A program made the translations under genes and the position numbers. From the NCBI GenBank assembly GCA_965662895.1, contig CBFIJH010000008.1, positions 1 through 64,000 of the forward strand: 64,000 bases of DNA, in the 5' to 3' direction. Below the pieces are notes generated by a model. The model worked only from the letters and a program-made list of their open reading frames with translations. It was not told the DNA's origin and made no database searches. The first letter of the stretch is position 1; every line of letters starts with the position of its first letter. This DNA is from Candidatus Poseidoniaceae archaeon. GTDB taxonomy: Archaea; Thermoplasmatota; Poseidoniia; Poseidoniales; Poseidoniaceae. Below are positions 26,305 through 38,424 of this stretch, in pieces.

Positions 26305-26458
26305 GGTCAAGAGGGTATTGTTTATCACCCCTCGTCATTCTTGTACAGACCCATGGAGGTCATGGGAGTGTATCGTCTTCACCAATCCGCACAAAAGCCC
26401 GTCGCCTGTTCTCCGCGCAGGCTCAATCGAATCAAAACGCCTGGCGGAGGTGAAACGC

Positions 26459-28159: not shown

Positions 28160-29085
28160 TGACCCCCTCGCGACAAATCCAACGTCAACCTTCATGGGTT
28201 ATGCTTGCCTCTGAGTTCGGGGAATCAACACTTCACGAGAAAGGTTCTGGCGAATTTGACCCGACGTTCGTGATTACAAAACTCGGAGCAAAAGTCAATC
28301 GAGTCGTAGTTTCCGGTCTTGTCGAACGTCTCGAATTACGTGAAACAAGCAACGGTTCACAAATGTACCAAGGTCAAGTTCGAGACCCATCAGGCCTTCA
28401 TTACTTCTCAGTCGGGGAATACGCATCGGAATCCATGCGTGAGTTCGTGGTCCAACTTCTCGAGAAAGTTGATTCAGGAGAACCAATCCTTCTCAGCATG
28501 ACAGCAAAAGCACGATGGTATCAAACGGATGAAGGTGCAGTATACACCTCTCTGCGCCCCGAAGAAGCGGCTGTTGTAACTCGTGAACGGTACGCCTCTT
28601 GGCTTGTGCGTGCGTGTGCAGCAACGCTTGATCGTCTCGACCAACATCAAAAATCATTGAATTGTGAGCCAACCAAAGAAAGTATGCTTGCAGCAGGGAT
28701 TCGAGAAGAAATGACGGATGGCCTTCTTGCTGCAAATGCCCATTATGGCCAAATCGATACAGAGGGATTCCGCCTCAACGTTATGCAAGCACTCGACATC
28801 GCTGAAGGTAAAATGGCTGCAGCTACAACTGCACCTCCGGTTCTCAACCTCACCGAATCACAGACGGATGAAGAAGCAAGCGAAGGTGGCGACGATCTGC
28901 AAGCTGTAATCCTCGAATGCATTCAAGCAATGGACAATGGAGAAGGCGTCGATTTCGAATCCTTGGTTCGGAATTTGTCGGCTCGCGGATTCACACGCGA
29001 GCAATCTGAAACACAGCTCGACACCATGAGTGATGAGGGATTGTTGCATGAACCCCGGTTTGGATGGTTCAAGATTGTTGAATGA
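28159..29085 (+). CDS. RPA-associated/RPA32-like protein (OB fold + C-terminal winged helix)
   Basis: TKLGAKVNRVVVSG, RDPSG, SLRPE; C-terminal EGLLHEPRFG; TGATG overlap with upstream gene. Confidence 0.85.
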   Translation: MTPSRQIQRQPSWVMLASEFGESTLHEKGSGEFDPTFVITKLGAKVNRVVVSGLVERLELRETSNGSQMYQGQVRDPSGLHYFSVGEYASESMREFVVQLLEKVDSGEPILLSMTAKARWYQTDEGAVYTSLRPEEAAVVTRERYASWLVRACAATLDRLDQHQKSLNCEPTKESMLAAGIREEMTDGLLAANAHYGQIDTEGFRLNVMQALDIAEGKMAAATTAPPVLNLTESQTDEEASEGGDDLQAVILECIQAMDNGEGVDFESLVRNLSARGFTREQSETQLDTMSDEGLLHEPRFGWFKIVE

Positions 29086-29143
29086 ACATATTGTTCCATT
29101 ACATTCAAATCTTGCCTTCACCCTCAAGTAGTCAGGGGTCAAC

Positions 29144-29497
29144 ATGGCAGGCATGGATTTCTTCATTCGACCGGCAACAGGAACTGGTTCTGCAGATTGG
29201 ATTCGTATTCCAAATGCAGACATTGACGTGAAGATTGCCAGGCGGTTAACACGGACGATTATTCGTGGGGGAGAAGGTGACAATCTGCATGATGAAGGTG
29301 CTGAATCAACCATTTACACCGTTCGTGGTATTCTCTCCATCGATGATTACAAGAAAATTCTGAAGATGTTTCGAACCGGCCAACCATTCATTCATGACCC
29401 ATTTGAAGAGCGGGATGTCAAGGTCATCTTTGCTACGCTTGAATATGAGGGATCAACTGAAAAATTCACCTTCGAACTGATTGAAGATGTGATCTGA
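29144..29497 (+). CDS. Small soluble protein resembling phage tail-tube/DNA-circularisation N-terminal domain
   Basis: Pattern RRLTRTIIRGGEGDNLHDEG...YTVRG...DDY...IHDPF...FTFELIE; no signal peptide. Confidence 0.5.
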   Translation: MAGMDFFIRPATGTGSADWIRIPNADIDVKIARRLTRTIIRGGEGDNLHDEGAESTIYTVRGILSIDDYKKILKMFRTGQPFIHDPFEERDVKVIFATLEYEGSTEKFTFELIEDVI

Positions 29498-29508
29498 GGT
29501 GAATAAAC

Positions 29509-30084
29509 ATGAGAAAACTCGACGAAAAGCGTGAAGTTCTCTACGTCATTCGCGCCATGGACGTCCTCATGTCGTCCGGTATTGGTCTCGAAGCAACCGT
29601 GCACAGCATTTCACAAGGCGGGTACGGAATAATTTCAGAAGATTTCAGTTCCATGATGGATAAAGTCCGGAAAGGCGGTCGACCACTCGCAAAAGAAATC
29701 AAGGCTCTCATGGGAAAGGTCGAAACCGAAGGATATCGGCGTCTTCTCAACATCATGCACATGAACATTACACAGAATACGGATATTATTGAAACGCTCA
29801 AAAAACAAGGTTCGCGAATGGAAGAAGAACGAACGGAAGATGTGAAGAAATACATCGAGGATTTGAGTGGCGTCCCGGAATCATTGCTCTCCATCGGAAT
29901 GATTGGACCAATTATTCTCGCTGTCCTTGGACTCTTTCCACAATTGGTTGGCGATATGGGAGCACTTTTCAGTATGCCTGAACAATCGACAATTGATGTC
30001 GTAGTTAACATCGGATTATTCCTCACGCTTTTTGCAATGGTTATGATCGGCCTCAAGACGCATACGAAAGACCCAGGATTGTGA
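29509..30084 (+). CDS. TadB/TadC (T2SS F-domain) membrane platform protein
   Basis: LMSSGIGLEA...GYGIISEDF F-domain followed by two TMs; SD GAGGTGA. Confidence 0.8.
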   Translation: MRKLDEKREVLYVIRAMDVLMSSGIGLEATVHSISQGGYGIISEDFSSMMDKVRKGGRPLAKEIKALMGKVETEGYRRLLNIMHMNITQNTDIIETLKKQGSRMEEERTEDVKKYIEDLSGVPESLLSIGMIGPIILAVLGLFPQLVGDMGALFSMPEQSTIDVVVNIGLFLTLFAMVMIGLKTHTKDPGL

Positions 30085-30085
30085 T

Positions 30086-30820
30086 TTGATGCTTTTCCGT
30101 TTCCTTGAGTCGTTTAGCAATCAACCGATGATGCTGATGCTCGGAGTTCTTGGACTCGGCATGATTGGGGGAGGGATTCCTCCGATTCGAGAGCGAATTC
30201 GTCGACGAAAAATCGAGAATGCTCTTCCTTCTTTCTTGGAAGGTCTCTCTGATGAGGTAGGAGCAGGTCTCGGAATTCAAGAAGCGATGCAACATCAGGC
30301 AAAATCTGCGCCTGCTCCACTCGGACCCCTTCTTGAGGAGACGCTGAAGGAGAGCCATTCAAGTTCATTTGACGCTGCACTCTCAAGTTTTGCAACAAAA
30401 TCCCGCTCATCTCAAGTTCAACGCGTCATGCATTTGCTCGAAACTGCAATCGAACAGAATGCTCCATTGCAAGACATATTGATGAATCTCTCCATGGATT
30501 ACGAGCGTTTGAACGATCTGATGAACAAAAGAGAATCCGAACTTCAAGGTCGTGGTCTTCTCATCGTTCTGTTTGTTTGCATTGGACTACCAGGGCTCAT
30601 TGGATTCCTCGTCGGTCTGTTTACACCTGCTTCGTCAGGTTTTCAAATCGAAGGTTTTCTCTCAACATTCAGCTTGTTCTTCGCCGTTGCAAGCGCCATC
30701 GGTGTAGCCGTCTCTGGACGTATGCTTGGCCGCATGCGAGATACCATGTGGTTTGTTCCTGGATGGATGGCAATGTCGATGTTCATTTTCCTCGGTGCTA
30801 CGAAATTAATTGGAGGCTAA
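30086..30820 (+). CDS. TadC/FlaJ-like (T2SS F-domain) membrane platform protein
   Basis: RRKIENALPSFLEGLSDEVGAGLGIQEA...LGPLL; C-terminal TMs. Confidence 0.85.
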   Translation: MMLFRFLESFSNQPMMLMLGVLGLGMIGGGIPPIRERIRRRKIENALPSFLEGLSDEVGAGLGIQEAMQHQAKSAPAPLGPLLEETLKESHSSSFDAALSSFATKSRSSQVQRVMHLLETAIEQNAPLQDILMNLSMDYERLNDLMNKRESELQGRGLLIVLFVCIGLPGLIGFLVGLFTPASSGFQIEGFLSTFSLFFAVASAIGVAVSGRMLGRMRDTMWFVPGWMAMSMFIFLGATKLIGG

Positions 30821-30823
30821 AGT

Positions 30824-32068
30824 ATGTCAGAACAAATTCTTGAACAATATGGGAATGTTACAATCTACACGGAATCAAACCACCCTTCTCCAATTTATCA
30901 TGTCGAAGGAAACGTTGCACCGAACCCGCATGGCAATCTTGCCGTTTTGTTCGAAGATGATAATCTGGAAGAAGTCATGTACAACGGTGGGACGCAATGT
31001 GTGAAAGTCGCTCACCGAAAGCACGGAATGTGCCGTACCAACGTTTGGATCAACGATGAAGAAGGCCTGCAAATTGCCAAAAACATCGCCGCGTTCACAA
31101 ATGTCCCTCTTGGAGATGGACCAGGAATGGTACCAATTTTTGATGGAAGGCTACCGGATGGATCACGTGTGAACGGAACCATACCTCCGGTTTCGCCGGA
31201 CGGACCTACACTTACAATTCGTAAATTCAAAGAAGATCCTTTGACGATGATCGACTTGGTGAAATTCGGAACCGTCAATTCTCGTCTTGCGGCGATGATG
31301 TGGGTTTGGATTGAAGGGCTTGATAGCAGGCCAGCCAACTTTGTCATTGCTGGCGGGACAGGTTCAGGTAAGACAACGACGCTGAATTGTCTTGGAATGT
31401 ACATTCCATGGCATCGCCGTCTTTTGACGGTGGAGGATACGGCAGAATTGCAAGTGTATCACGACCATTGGTTGCGGATGGAAACCCGCCGAGAACGCCC
31501 AGATGGAACACCGGAAGTCGACATGAACGATTGTCTAAAGTCAAGCCTACGTATGCGCCCAGACCGCATCATCGTCGGGGAAGTACGCGGTCCAGAGGCT
31601 GCAACGCTGCTCACTGCCATGAACACTGGACACGATGGGTCGTTCGGCAGCCTACACGCAAACACTGCTCAGGAAACCGTAACCAGAATGATCAATCCGC
31701 CAATGAATGTACCACCAATTATGCTTACTGGTCTTGACCTCATCATCATCCAGGCTCGATTGCATGTCAATGGAAAGACGGCTCGTAAGATTACTGAAGT
31801 TGCTGAAATTGCAGGAATGGAAGGCTCAAAACCTCGCTTGAATACAATCTGGAAGTACAACGCAGCGACCGATCAGATCGAAGAGACTGGAATTCCTTCA
31901 AATCTTCGCGAGGTCATCTGTAGAGCCGCTGGTGTTACCCCGGACGTTTTCGAAAAGCATGTTCAACAGCGTCAACAAATCATTGAAGATTTGATTGCTC
32001 GAGACATCACCGATATCCAATCCGTAACAACAGTCATTCAGAACTTCTACGCTCAAAGTCATCATTGA
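30824..32068 (+). CDS. TadA/CpaF/VirB11-family secretion ATPase
   Basis: Walker A GGTGSGKTT, VEDTAEL, LRMRPDRIIVGEVRG, GHDGSFGSLHA. Confidence 0.93.
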   Translation: MSEQILEQYGNVTIYTESNHPSPIYHVEGNVAPNPHGNLAVLFEDDNLEEVMYNGGTQCVKVAHRKHGMCRTNVWINDEEGLQIAKNIAAFTNVPLGDGPGMVPIFDGRLPDGSRVNGTIPPVSPDGPTLTIRKFKEDPLTMIDLVKFGTVNSRLAAMMWVWIEGLDSRPANFVIAGGTGSGKTTTLNCLGMYIPWHRRLLTVEDTAELQVYHDHWLRMETRRERPDGTPEVDMNDCLKSSLRMRPDRIIVGEVRGPEAATLLTAMNTGHDGSFGSLHANTAQETVTRMINPPMNVPPIMLTGLDLIIIQARLHVNGKTARKITEVAEIAGMEGSKPRLNTIWKYNAATDQIEETGIPSNLREVICRAAGVTPDVFEKHVQQRQQIIEDLIARDITDIQSVTTVIQNFYAQSHH

Positions 32069-33810
32069 TCGTCTTGCAACTGAAGCCTCGAGAGTAAGGC
32101 ATCAACACGATCGATTTTTCCTCGAACTTCACCAACACGCTCTGCAGCATCTGCGACGGATTCTGCAACCTGCATCTCAGGCTCATCAAGATCGACTTCT
32201 TGCGGTTTGAAAGTTGATGCAAGAGCTTTGAGTTCTGCAACGATTGCATCAACCTGTTCATCACTCACCAAAATTCCTGGTGCAAGACGTGGTATCTGAC
32301 TTGGTGTTAGATATCCCAATTCTGTACCTACAATTCCTGCACATGCAAGGACTCGAGGACGAAGTTCAGAAGTGTTGACAAGATAACCTTTTGATTCGAG
32401 GAATCGTATGATAAGACTCTGTTGTGCTTCTGAAAATTCTCCTTCACTCGACTCGAGAACGGTTTCGACAAGCGACTCAAAGGATGGCAGGTTTCTCTCC
32501 AAACGTTCGATGGTTCGACGAACCTCATCCGGCAGATGGACTGCACCATGATAGAGAATACGGAGCATTCGATTTCTTCGAGCAGTCGCTGGATCTTGCA
32601 ATTCCTCAGCTTCGCTGATTTCAAGATGGAGATCAAACAAAGCATGCAGCCTTCCAGAGACTGCAGGGCTTCTCAAATCCAATCCGAGACCTCGCGCTTC
32701 CTCCTCAAATTCCATTCGTGCTTGTACCAAATTCCCCTGCCGTCCAGCAACAATTTCAGATATTCGTTCCCGCAACTGAGGGCGCATCTGTTCAAACAAT
32801 CGAATCGCCTCTCGTTCAGACCACGAGCCGGGTTTGCTTGAGAGTGCATTTTTTTCTTGTTCGTATCGATACGATGTTTCCATAATTATCGTCCGAATTG
32901 CATCTTGTACGCGCAGTAGGTCCACCGAAAACCCGTGGTTTGAAAGACTCATGATAAACGAATTCATATCGTCCATATCGGTTGTGCTACCAACCAACAA
33001 GTAGTCTCTTGCAGCAGCTTCAATCTCTGGACGACGGGAGGAGATTTCCAACAATGCAGCCTCTTCTTCAAGGGTCGGTTCTTCTGTTGCAAGTTCCTGC
33101 AGCATTGGAGGAACCGGTTGTTCGACTTCAACGATGTGTGCTTGAAGGCTTTCTTCTATAGATACTGCCATATCGGAGAGAGAACGATCAAAACGTTCTG
33201 ATTTTTCGATTAATTCGGATTCTTCTTCGAACGTCCATCCTTCAGGATGTTCGGAAACAAAAGCATCCACTGTTTCTTCAATGGAAGACTGCTCAGGAGT
33301 TGTTTCTTCATCTGACTCTCCTTTGACAGGTATCTTTACTGAACCTCCACCTCGTTTTAGAGAACGTTTGATGACACCCCAATTCTTGTATTGGGCTGAA
33401 AGAACACCGGCGACGCGTATGAGCAGCGTTTGGCGATTACCCGAACGAGGCAACTCCAAGGCTTTGCATAATGCATGCAATTCCTCCTTCGTCATCTTGT
33501 CAAGATTTTCCTCTTTAAGTTGCTTTGGATCGTGGTTGAGATGCAAATACAAACGCTGTCGACGGGTTCGTAATGAACCTGTTTTCTTAATTCCAAAAAC
33601 CCCGAGAAGGTCCCCGAGGTCGCTGTTAAGGATACTTTTCAACCCATCCAAAGTTAAATCCCATTCTGGCAAAATCAAGTCACGAATTAATTGTGCTCGT
33701 AGAAATTCAACAGAGCCATTTTTTGCGAGACCATAGGCTGAAGCAATCTCTTTGAGATCCTCGAGGCGTGCCTGATAAAGTTCAGACAGAAGACTCGAAC
33801 GATTGCTCAT
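32062..33810 (-). CDS. Protein with three N-terminal SAP-like DNA-binding motifs and an acidic helical C-terminal region
   Basis: LEDLKEIASAYGLAKNGSVEFLRAQL; NSDLGDLLGVFGIKKTGSLRTRRQRL; MTKEELHALCKALELPRSGNRQTLLIRV. Confidence 0.72.
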   Translation of the reverse strand: MSNRSSLLSELYQARLEDLKEIASAYGLAKNGSVEFLRAQLIRDLILPEWDLTLDGLKSILNSDLGDLLGVFGIKKTGSLRTRRQRLYLHLNHDPKQLKEENLDKMTKEELHALCKALELPRSGNRQTLLIRVAGVLSAQYKNWGVIKRSLKRGGGSVKIPVKGESDEETTPEQSSIEETVDAFVSEHPEGWTFEEESELIEKSERFDRSLSDMAVSIEESLQAHIVEVEQPVPPMLQELATEEPTLEEEAALLEISSRRPEIEAAARDYLLVGSTTDMDDMNSFIMSLSNHGFSVDLLRVQDAIRTIIMETSYRYEQEKNALSSKPGSWSEREAIRLFEQMRPQLRERISEIVAGRQGNLVQARMEFEEEARGLGLDLRSPAVSGRLHALFDLHLEISEAEELQDPATARRNRMLRILYHGAVHLPDEVRRTIERLERNLPSFESLVETVLESSEGEFSEAQQSLIIRFLESKGYLVNTSELRPRVLACAGIVGTELGYLTPSQIPRLAPGILVSDEQVDAIVAELKALASTFKPQEVDLDEPEMQVAESVADAAERVGEVRGKIDRVDALLSRLQLQDDQ

Positions 33811-33982
33811 CACGTTCACCTGAGTTTGGTTATTTCCTTACAGTATATGTGGTTTCGCTGTCAAATCAGTACCAAGAGCCCGATTTTTCGTCCGATTTTA
33901 CCGGACGGGATACATGTTTTCTGTGAGTAAATTTGGCTAAACCTTGAAACACGTTCGACACTCAGGGTGAGTTGGTGAGTGA

Positions 33983-37872: not shown

Positions 37873-37932
37873 ACCATAGTTGTCTTCGGATTCCATCGGT
37901 GTGTTCAAGTCTTAGCAATGCCAGCACATTAC

Positions 37933-38424
37933 ATGGCGACAATGCGCAGGGATGACGAAGCGGTCAGCCCTGTTATCGCTACTGTCCTGCTTCTTGCCAT
38001 CACCGTAATGCTCTCAGGAATGGTTTTCATTTTGATGCAAGGCGCCTTGAATACAGCAGAAAAAGCACCGCCACAAATGACGGTGAGTGTACGTTCTCTC
38101 GACAATGGATACCATGTTGTCCGAATCACAAGTTTGGACCAAACCCTCGACCCTGCTCGAGTCTCGTTTAGCCTTCAGGAACCGGGTGGAGATTCCAACA
38201 CCTCGTTTGCGGGCTATGTCAATGACGCAGAGGTATACTCAGTGGTTGGTTCGAACATCTCGTTCCATGACCGCGATGCGAGTTACTCAATTTCAGCAGG
38301 TGATTACTTTGTCATCCATTCGGAGGAAATCGGCACGGATGAGGGCGTCTGGGACTTCGTCTTACTCGAGGAATCCATACAATACGTGCTGGTTCGAGTT
38401 GAATTGCCTCCAATGAACTCATGA
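37933..38424 (+). CDS. Archaeal type IV pilin-like protein (class III signal peptide)
   Basis: RRDDEA|VSPVIATVLLLAITVMLSGMVF. Confidence 0.88.
   Translation: MATMRRDDEAVSPVIATVLLLAITVMLSGMVFILMQGALNTAEKAPPQMTVSVRSLDNGYHVVRITSLDQTLDPARVSFSLQEPGGDSNTSFAGYVNDAEVYSVVGSNISFHDRDASYSISAGDYFVIHSEEIGTDEGVWDFVLLEESIQYVLVRVELPPMNS

Follow-up and report, generated by a model that had tools for sequence, protein, structure and literature searches.

A type IV filament motor core headed by a small protein of predicted tail-tube-like fold in Poseidoniales

The Poseidoniales rank with the most abundant archaea in surface seawater. To our knowledge the order has no cultured member, so its surface machinery is known from genomes only. 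Here we describe a four-gene operon located at positions 29144–32068 of a 64,000-nt stretch of DNA (hereafter the window) from a Candidatus Poseidoniaceae archaeon (GenBank assembly GCA_965662895.1, contig CBFIJH010000008.1, positions 1 to 64,000 of the forward strand). The operon opens with the gene for a soluble protein of 117 amino acids, p117, which is predicted to fold like phage tail-tube proteins, tube initiators and the Hcp protein of the type VI secretion system (T6SS), and it continues with the genes for two half-size platform proteins and a compact assembly ATPase. We show what the operon contains and how p117 is predicted to fold, that the four genes are inherited together and lost as a block, and that p117 is, as judged from its conservation, under purifying selection. 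We lean towards an explanation in which the operon encodes a pilus assembly core of the Epd/CdiP type and p117 is a lineage-specific cytoplasmic accessory of that core, probably an oligomeric ring or adaptor seated on the ATPase or on the platform. The four genes are as follows:

29144–29497, + strand: p117, an acidic soluble protein of 117 amino acids, gene 1 of the operon, with a predicted tail-tube/tube-initiator/Hcp-like fold
29509–30084, + strand: TadB/EpdJ/CdiPFa-like half-size platform protein of 191 amino acids, with a cytoplasmic T2SSF domain and two C-terminal transmembrane (TM) helices
30086–30820, + strand: TadC/EpdK/CdiPFb-like half-size platform protein of 244 amino acids, with a T2SSF domain and at least three TM helices
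30824–32068, + strand: compact PilB/TadA/FlaI-family assembly ATPase of 414 amino acids, without the first N-terminal domain

The intergenic gaps within the operon measure 11, 1 and 3 nt. An initial annotation of the window, made from the letters and their translations, had described a tightly packed operon with a soluble 117-residue head, two T2SSF proteins and a 414-residue ATPase, and both the list of open reading frames (ORFs) and Pfam agree with this description. The ORF list likewise confirms that the operon itself includes no pilin, prepilin peptidase or archaellin gene, although a Pilin_N gene lies 5.85 kb downstream. The surroundings also correspond to what had been annotated: upstream, an RPA gene (likely start at 26453) is followed by the gene for a 313-residue RPA partner that ends at 29085, leaving a gap of 58 nt before the p117 start, and on the other side a SAP-domain gene overlaps the ATPase stop by 7 nt.

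The three genes that follow p117 have recognizable relatives. Pfam T2SSF (PF00482) matched both the 191-residue protein (1.1e-7) and the 244-residue protein (1.5e-9) above its cut-off, and NCBIfam gave a weak UpsF match for the latter (4.9e-5). Using our own hydropathy script, we located two TM segments in the TadB-like protein (residues 125–143 and 164–182), three in the TadC-like protein and none in p117. The ATPase matched Pfam T2SSE (PF00437, 7.6e-42) as well as the NCBIfam models FlaI (5.3e-77) and TadA (2.7e-61), both under the curated cut-offs. It carries a Walker A motif (GGTGSGKT) at residue 177, an Asp box at 204, a Walker B motif at 243 and the His-box histidines H270 and H278, which are invariant in 21 sequences. 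Compared with sequences in the PDB, it matched afGspE (3.3e-63), CpaF (2.1e-62) and FlaI, and could be aligned with residues 132–498 of afGspE (2oap) and 69–376 of CpaF. Since the alignment begins at residue 132 of afGspE, the usual first N-terminal domain is missing, which bears out the earlier description of a compact ATPase with a short N-terminus. Judged by sequence, the combination of a predicted hexameric PilB/TadA-family ATPase with a split T2SSF platform is a type IV filament assembly core.

The structure of p117 was predicted with AlphaFold2 from an alignment of 23 p117-family sequences (alignment A1), yielding a model with a mean predicted local distance difference test score (pLDDT) of 85.7 and a predicted template modelling score (pTM) of 0.75. 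The model consists of a β-sandwich with strands at residues 4–9, 20–37, 48–63, 82–85, 90–93, 95–102 and 107–116, flanked by a single helix (66–78). Strands 20–37 and 48–63 form a long β-hairpin which, at 18 residues per strand, is typical of tube proteins. A Foldseek search of the PDB returned 13 matches at E ≤ 1e-3, every one of them a phage or tailocin tail protein, including diffocin 8v3w, the monocin tube 8qhs, lambda gpV and baseplate chains of Mu, Milano and 7-7-1. In BFVD, 83 matches were obtained at E ≤ 1e-3, some of them named DNA circulation N-terminal, DUF6046 or contractile-injection tube. We also compared the model with 48,161 representative chains using VIA-align, which is independent of Foldseek and for which the stated background best Z is 7–8. 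The top match was phiCD508 9g8s (Z 10.0, root-mean-square deviation (rmsd) 2.9 Å, 111 of the 117 residues), while diffocin, monocin, the SPP1 tube and Hcp1 scored Z 9.2–9.6. A second VIA-align comparison listed 54 chains at Z ≥ 8; 49 of the top 50 entries were tail tube, tube initiator, Hcp or neck proteins, with a PilZ protein (Z 8.1, 85 residues) as the one exception.

Sequence searches returned no corresponding relatives. No family was found for p117 in Pfam (E ≤ 0.1), NCBIfam or PHROGs, Pfam at E ≤ 10 linked none of the 23 p117-family members to a tail family, and a search of PDB sequences with the p117 profile gave a best E of 0.69. Alignment of A1 with 13 PF07157 proteins by hhalign yielded a probability of 0.05% (E 0.81); the N-terminus of Mu N taken alone gave 0.1%, and the Mu tube protein M was also negative. 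Of all named clusters, a language-model search ranked P2 GpU and DNA_circ_N closest, but its score of 0.91 is weak, and the DxG...helix...HxPF strings of p117 and DNA_circ_N can be aligned, without statistical support. These searches consequently did not place p117 in PF07157 (DNA_circ_N, the N-terminal domain of Mu gp43/N). The 18 pattern matches obtained in viral contigs contained no relative of p117, the other three operon proteins matched no tail-protein PHROG, and no tail, baseplate, sheath or T6SS genes were found around p117, whose neighbors are the RPA, Tad-like and SAP genes. A tail-tube fold had initially been guessed by eye for p117. Predicted structure (AlphaFold2, Foldseek and VIA-align) bears out the placement of p117 with the tail-tube/tube-initiator/Hcp fold, and sequence (Pfam, PHROGs and hhalign) gives it no support.

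The most conserved part of p117 is the string at the tip of the hairpin, GDDGDNVLEDGETWYYT. A 745-residue repeat protein (P0165) matches it in five stretches; we judged this likeness to be probably a coincidence at motif level or a low-complexity match, and left the protein out of the alignment.

Among 401 sampled Thermoplasmatota genomes, the p117 family is present in all 57 Poseidoniaceae, in 15 of 37 Thalassarchaeaceae (one of these being a weak 27-residue match) and in 8 genomes of other families. Across 80 contig loci, all from Poseidoniales-type metagenome-assembled genomes, p117 is followed by the TadB-like gene in 79, by the TadC-like gene in 76 and by the ATPase gene in 73; the seven loci without an ATPase all terminate before its position. 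The order RPA-RPA-p117-TadB-TadC-ATPase, with the SAP gene convergent, is found in 8 of 12 Thalassarchaeaceae loci, where identity amounts to 38–50% for p117 and 72–75% for the ATPase. The initial annotation had let its proposal depend on the fold of p117 and on the retention of the gene beside Tad-like genes in relatives; the predicted fold did not depart from the tail-tube type, and the counts above agree with the expected linkage.

The four genes are also absent together. An ATPase ortholog (71–75% identity) was detected in 11 of 35 Thalassarchaeaceae genomes, all 11 of which contain p117, and in none of the 20 p117-negative genomes of this family. In six operon-less Thalassarchaeaceae genomes the RPA pair directly abuts the SAP gene, so exactly four genes are gone. 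In a tree of RPA the operon-less genomes form one clade (Shimodaira–Hasegawa-like approximate likelihood-ratio test support 98) nested among operon-bearing genomes, and therefore point to a single loss event rather than many. Where the operon is kept, its genes differ in conservation: for the 47 loci with p117 identity below 80%, median identity was 90% for the ATPase, 75.9% for p117, 67.2% for the TadC-like protein and 66.8% for the TadB-like protein, with 64.2% and 58.8% for the RPA genes and 54.8% for the SAP protein. Second in identity to the ATPase, p117 is, on these values, under strong purifying selection.

Four further features of the window bear on the operon:

29101–29110, + strand: promoter-like motif ACATTCAAAT, 43 nt 5′ of the p117 start codon
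29134–29139, + strand: AGGGGT, a Shine-Dalgarno-like element 5′ of p117
32062–33819, − strand: SAP-domain protein of 585 amino acids, convergent with the ATPase gene, a candidate associated component (a lead)
37918–38424, + strand: stand-alone archaeal type IV pilin of 168 amino acids (PF07790, Pilin_N), a candidate motor substrate

The motif upstream of p117 takes the form ACAYTCAAGT and is kept at the same site in 10 Poseidoniaceae loci, with related ACCTTGAAG-type motifs in Thalassarchaeaceae loci. Its core hexamer, TTCAAG, occurs 5′ of 21 of 346 genes in the genome, compared with 8.5 expected (2.5-fold). The conserved motif in the 58-nt gap, taken with the genome-wide enrichment of its core, suggests that the motif acts as a promoter and that p117 is probably the first gene of its own transcript. 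The hexamers TTCAAG, TCAAGA and CTTGAA are all enriched 2.3–2.5-fold at 26–70 nt 5′ of genes across the genome, and may represent the TATA-like promoter element of this lineage. Public gene calls give p117 a length of 149–154 amino acids, which we rejected: the extension (window 29033–29143) is an alternative frame of the end of the RPA-partner gene, and divergent relatives have 117 amino acids. A TAG at 29129–29131 closes the upstream frame, and the 117-residue protein is therefore the real form.

The Pilin_N protein encoded 5.85 kb downstream of the operon matched PF07790 at 5.4e-9 (37.2 bits, versus a cut-off of 25.2) and has a class III signal peptide (...DDEA/VSPVIATVLLLAITV...). Its ortholog (50–62% identity) lies co-oriented with p117 and 8.2–8.9 kb 3′ of it in all five Poseidoniaceae genomes searched. 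In Thalassarchaeaceae, the 11 genomes with Pilin_N proteins, out of 35, are exactly those that carry the operon. This protein is a candidate substrate of the operon motor, as suggested by its synteny and co-distribution. Together with the remote location of the pilin genes in Epd and CdiP, these observations weaken the initial view of the machine as pilin-independent. Additional candidates with a class III signal were found by motif at C1:219954–221393 and C4:47447–48487, and loci for an archaellum and a second pilus (C7) are present in the genome as well. Separately, many Group II genomes contain open frames of ~4,500–4,700 amino acids, each opening with a class III signal peptide of the Pilin_N type (for example G255:C1:187809, G017:C3:51115, G037:C1:1608047 and G097:C1:118507); these look like giant pilin-anchored surface proteins.

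The SAP-domain protein follows the operon in another way. Pfam SAP and SAP_new25 both matched at residues 106–141, the one SAP motif found by Pfam in a gene that the initial annotation had called triple-SAP. The protein has 547–619 amino acids in the 11 operon-bearing Thalassarchaeaceae genomes and 321–394 in the other 24 of 35; the short form keeps residues 10–190 and ~447–508, and its central part has been lost internally. This central domain (residues ~240–450; nt 32470–33102, − strand) was detected in 57/57 Poseidoniaceae, in the operon-bearing 11 of 37 Thalassarchaeaceae and in none of 306 other Thermoplasmatota genomes sampled, the same distribution as that of the p117-headed operon, amounting to one gain and one loss. 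An AlphaFold2 model of the protein is all-α, and the SAP motif alone matches DEK (probability 0.96, E 0.35). Fold comparison returned no match for the C-terminal half or the central helical domain, with no usable match in Atlas. We regard the SAP protein as a candidate partner of the operon, as a lead only, on account of this shared distribution. RPA behaves differently: a single copy was found in the genome, and RPA is present in 35/35 Thalassarchaeaceae genomes with or without the operon. The adjacency of RPA to the operon therefore looks like inherited order.

In the explanation that we favor, the compact hexameric PilB/TadA-type ATPase would drive the platform of two half-size T2SSF proteins, with pilins supplied from elsewhere in the genome, for example by the Pilin_N gene at 37918–38424. 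This three-gene core would be old, and in Poseidoniales it would have gained p117 as a fourth, soluble subunit. Forming an oligomeric ring or adaptor, p117 would dock either on the hexamer formed by the ATPase or on the TadB-like protein, at its cytoplasmic domain, and might tune assembly or couple the motor to another partner, possibly the SAP protein. Its role would be analogous, not homologous, to that of ArlH/FlaH, TadZ or PilZ.

Several observations weigh against this explanation. The proposed tie between p117 and the motor is one of gene order and co-inheritance. Complex prediction for the ATPase, the TadB-like and the TadC-like proteins (each aligned, with p117 as the partner) gave a score of 0.00 (mark 0.32) and carries no weight either way. 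The fold call was made on a predicted model, for which Z values of 9–10 exceed the background of 7–8 by a modest margin, with matches that are consistent and whole-length. The co-loss of the four genes could be one deletion of adjacent DNA. Peptidase_A24 (PF01478) was not detected at E ≤ 0.001 in this 92%-complete genome, in which a weak prepilin peptidase candidate was found at C9:14923–15102 (E 0.69). An archaellum needs a prepilin-type peptidase, and archaellins, an archaellum motor and two pilus motors are all encoded here; the enzyme may have diverged, or its gene may be missing from the assembly. In addition, of 13 loci retrieved from other Thermoplasmatota, 9 hold the TadB-TadC-ATPase core without p117. 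These core-only loci show full-length ATPase identities of 49–57%, TadB-like proteins of ~190 and TadC-like proteins of ~250 amino acids, and a location away from RPA; the remaining four comprise three fused tandem ATPases and one unresolved locus. In the loci fetched from other Thermoplasmatota the p117 profile found no match at E ≤ 10. The proposal of a novel machine therefore loses ground, since its core exists without p117 and resembles the Epd/CdiP motors.

The p117 family, in turn, extends beyond the motor, which also counts against the favored explanation. The same genome encodes a 119-residue paralog (C4:142442–142801, − strand) with no ATPase nearby. Paralogs with 73–91% identity to it occur at 13 other Poseidoniaceae loci in varied contexts without an ATPase, three of them adjoining Sec-signal proteins of >1000 amino acids, and three Thalassarchaeaceae genomes contain a p117 paralog without a motor. 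None of the eight distant Thermoplasmatota copies has Tad neighbors; four lie directly 3′ of large Sec-signal, C-terminally anchored surface proteins (an S8 protease with CARDB, PKD/NosD and Big_13), which were located at L116:5223–9305, L115:6005–10458, L119:5982–9366 and L120:9075–12084. The strings RRxxR, EGDDLxDEGxES, FRxGQP, DPFxE and IED are common to the operon, paralog and distant copies. The paralog in the same genome is preceded by two unannotated membrane proteins of 213 and 214 amino acids, which we rejected as a second platform, having found no Pfam family for them and their conservation in one same-genus genome only. The family is thus wider than the operon, and no relative was found in viral contigs, which argues that the Poseidoniales ancestor recruited to the motor, or at least fixed before it, one protein from an older cellular family. 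The initial idea of a domesticated tail tube is not supported by this picture, given that sequence searches did not link p117 to tail proteins, that viral contigs yielded no relative, and that p117 has relatives outside motor contexts.

These motor-less copies, with their shared motifs and their position 3′ of surface proteins, are what an alternative would predict in which p117 is a conserved neighbor with a function of its own, for example as a small chaperone or binding protein in the cytoplasm, from a family spread across Thermoplasmatota; its place before tadB would then be inherited order. Block loss of the operon as a single event is compatible with it as well. Nevertheless, p117 is separated from tadB by 11 nt, the gene order is kept across the order even though RPA identity drops to ~46% between families, and the deletion took p117 together with the motor while sparing the RPA genes. 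The promoter-like motif, moreover, stands 5′ of p117, with none between p117 and tadB. We consider this alternative unlikely. A different alternative starts from the hairpin and sandwich themselves: p117, as a monomer or dimer, could bind and regulate the ATPase in the manner of PilZ or another small β-barrel protein, its likeness to tail tubes being that of a common β-sandwich. Structure matches to 3kyf (Z 7.1) and 2gjg (Z 8.1), over 85 residues each, an RxxxR motif (R33–R37) and the missing sequence link to tail proteins all agree with this possibility. We find it quite improbable, however, because the tail-type matches are more numerous, cover 108–117 residues at Z 9–10 and make up 49 of the top 50 VIA-align entries and 13/13 Foldseek PDB matches, the hairpin has the strand length of tube proteins, Pfam gave no PilZ (PF07238) match and D/NxSxxG was not seen by eye.

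Two alternatives retain more of the initial proposal. The conserved order RPA-RPA-p117-TadB-TadC-ATPase-SAP across Poseidoniales, and the SAP central domain that exactly follows the operon and is lost internally in operon-less genomes, would both be explained if a p117 ring worked with the motor, the SAP protein and the RPA pair as a single membrane machine for DNA uptake or export, p117 serving as the DNA conduit or adaptor. In Methanococcus maripaludis, type IV pili, epdJKL included, are required for natural transformation (PMC10133366). RPA, however, was found as a sole copy and in 35/35 Thalassarchaeaceae genomes whether they carry the operon or lack it, which marks it as a housekeeping gene, and the motor core lies away from RPA in other lineages. 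The SAP co-distribution reduces to one gain and one loss, neither the ORF list nor Pfam revealed a nuclease, ComEC-like channel or translocase in the block, and p117 has no signal peptide or TM segment. The initial suggestion of DNA uptake through RPA is accordingly left with one hint of a DNA function, the co-distribution of the SAP central domain, and we hold the joint machine to be improbable. There is a similarly slim chance that a ring of tail-tube fold is a structural part of the motor that couples it to a chromosome-binding SAP protein, in which case the motor would double as a DNA uptake or export device beside RPA and a phage-tail building block would have been reused at the cytoplasmic face. 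Finally, p117 itself was initially proposed to form an exported or polymerized, pilin-independent tube or filament, in keeping with the polymerization of the tail-tube fold in phages and with an operon that has no pilin gene. Type IV machines extract membrane-anchored pilins, whereas p117 lacks a signal peptide and TM segment; Pilin_N genes lie nearby and co-vary with the operon, and paralogs occur in motor-less genomes. We regard such a filament as highly improbable.

Should p117 be a motor subunit, as in the explanation towards which we lean, it would be the first tail-tube/Hcp-fold protein within a type IV filament machine, and a new accessory on the list used to explain how a single ATPase is regulated in type IV pili and archaella. 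The matched distribution of the SAP central domain would then offer a concrete second partner candidate. Should p117 be a mere neighbor, the locus would be an ordinary pilus core of the Epd/CdiP type, and the result would mainly correct the reading of a pilin-independent novel machine.

Compared with known systems, p117 resembles phage and tailocin tube proteins, initiators and T6SS Hcp in its predicted fold, which is matched over the whole length at Z 8–10 and rmsd 2.6–3.6 Å by phiCD508 9g8s, diffocin 8v3w, monocin 8qhs, lambda gpV 7t2e, the Mu baseplate 9ki1 and Hcp1 8z7k. Unlike these tail proteins, it is encoded by a cellular gene beside a pilus motor, with no sequence support for the relationship and no tail genes around it. 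ArlH/FlaH, TadZ, PilM and PilZ are cytoplasmic accessories of type IV filament motors with KaiC-like, MinD-like, actin-like and PilZ-barrel folds. The role proposed for p117 is like theirs, in that it would be soluble, encoded with the motor and docked at the cytoplasmic face, but the folds are unrelated. Among the main texts of open-access papers we found none that pairs a protein of tail-tube fold with the motor of a type IV pilus, and none on the Poseidoniales operon.

The motor genes have close counterparts. The Epd system of M. maripaludis combines two half-size PilC paralogs (EpdJ/EpdK) and the ATPase EpdL in one operon, with pilins encoded elsewhere (PMC4371748, PMC10133366). The Poseidoniales operon shares two half-size PilC paralogs and one ATPase with Epd and with the bacterial Tad core (TadB/TadC/TadA, the last equivalent to CpaF); it differs in that its ATPase lacks the first N-terminal domain and in that those accounts describe no subunit of tail-tube fold. 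In the CdiP system of Cuniculiplasma divulgatum, a member of Thermoplasmatales and thus of the same phylum, the split platform CdiPFa/CdiPFb is likewise encoded next to PilB-type ATPase genes and the pilin genes lie far off (PMC12448462). CdiP has two ATPases and, in its published description, no small tail-tube-fold protein, whereas in the Poseidoniales operon a single compact ATPase is found together with p117 as the product of gene 1. The fused tandem ATPases of other Thermoplasmatota, in which two compact TadA-like ATPases share a single ORF of 862–900 amino acids with no adjoining platform genes (L153:3648–6236, L155:429–3131 and L156:4133–6745), recall the two ATPases of CdiP.

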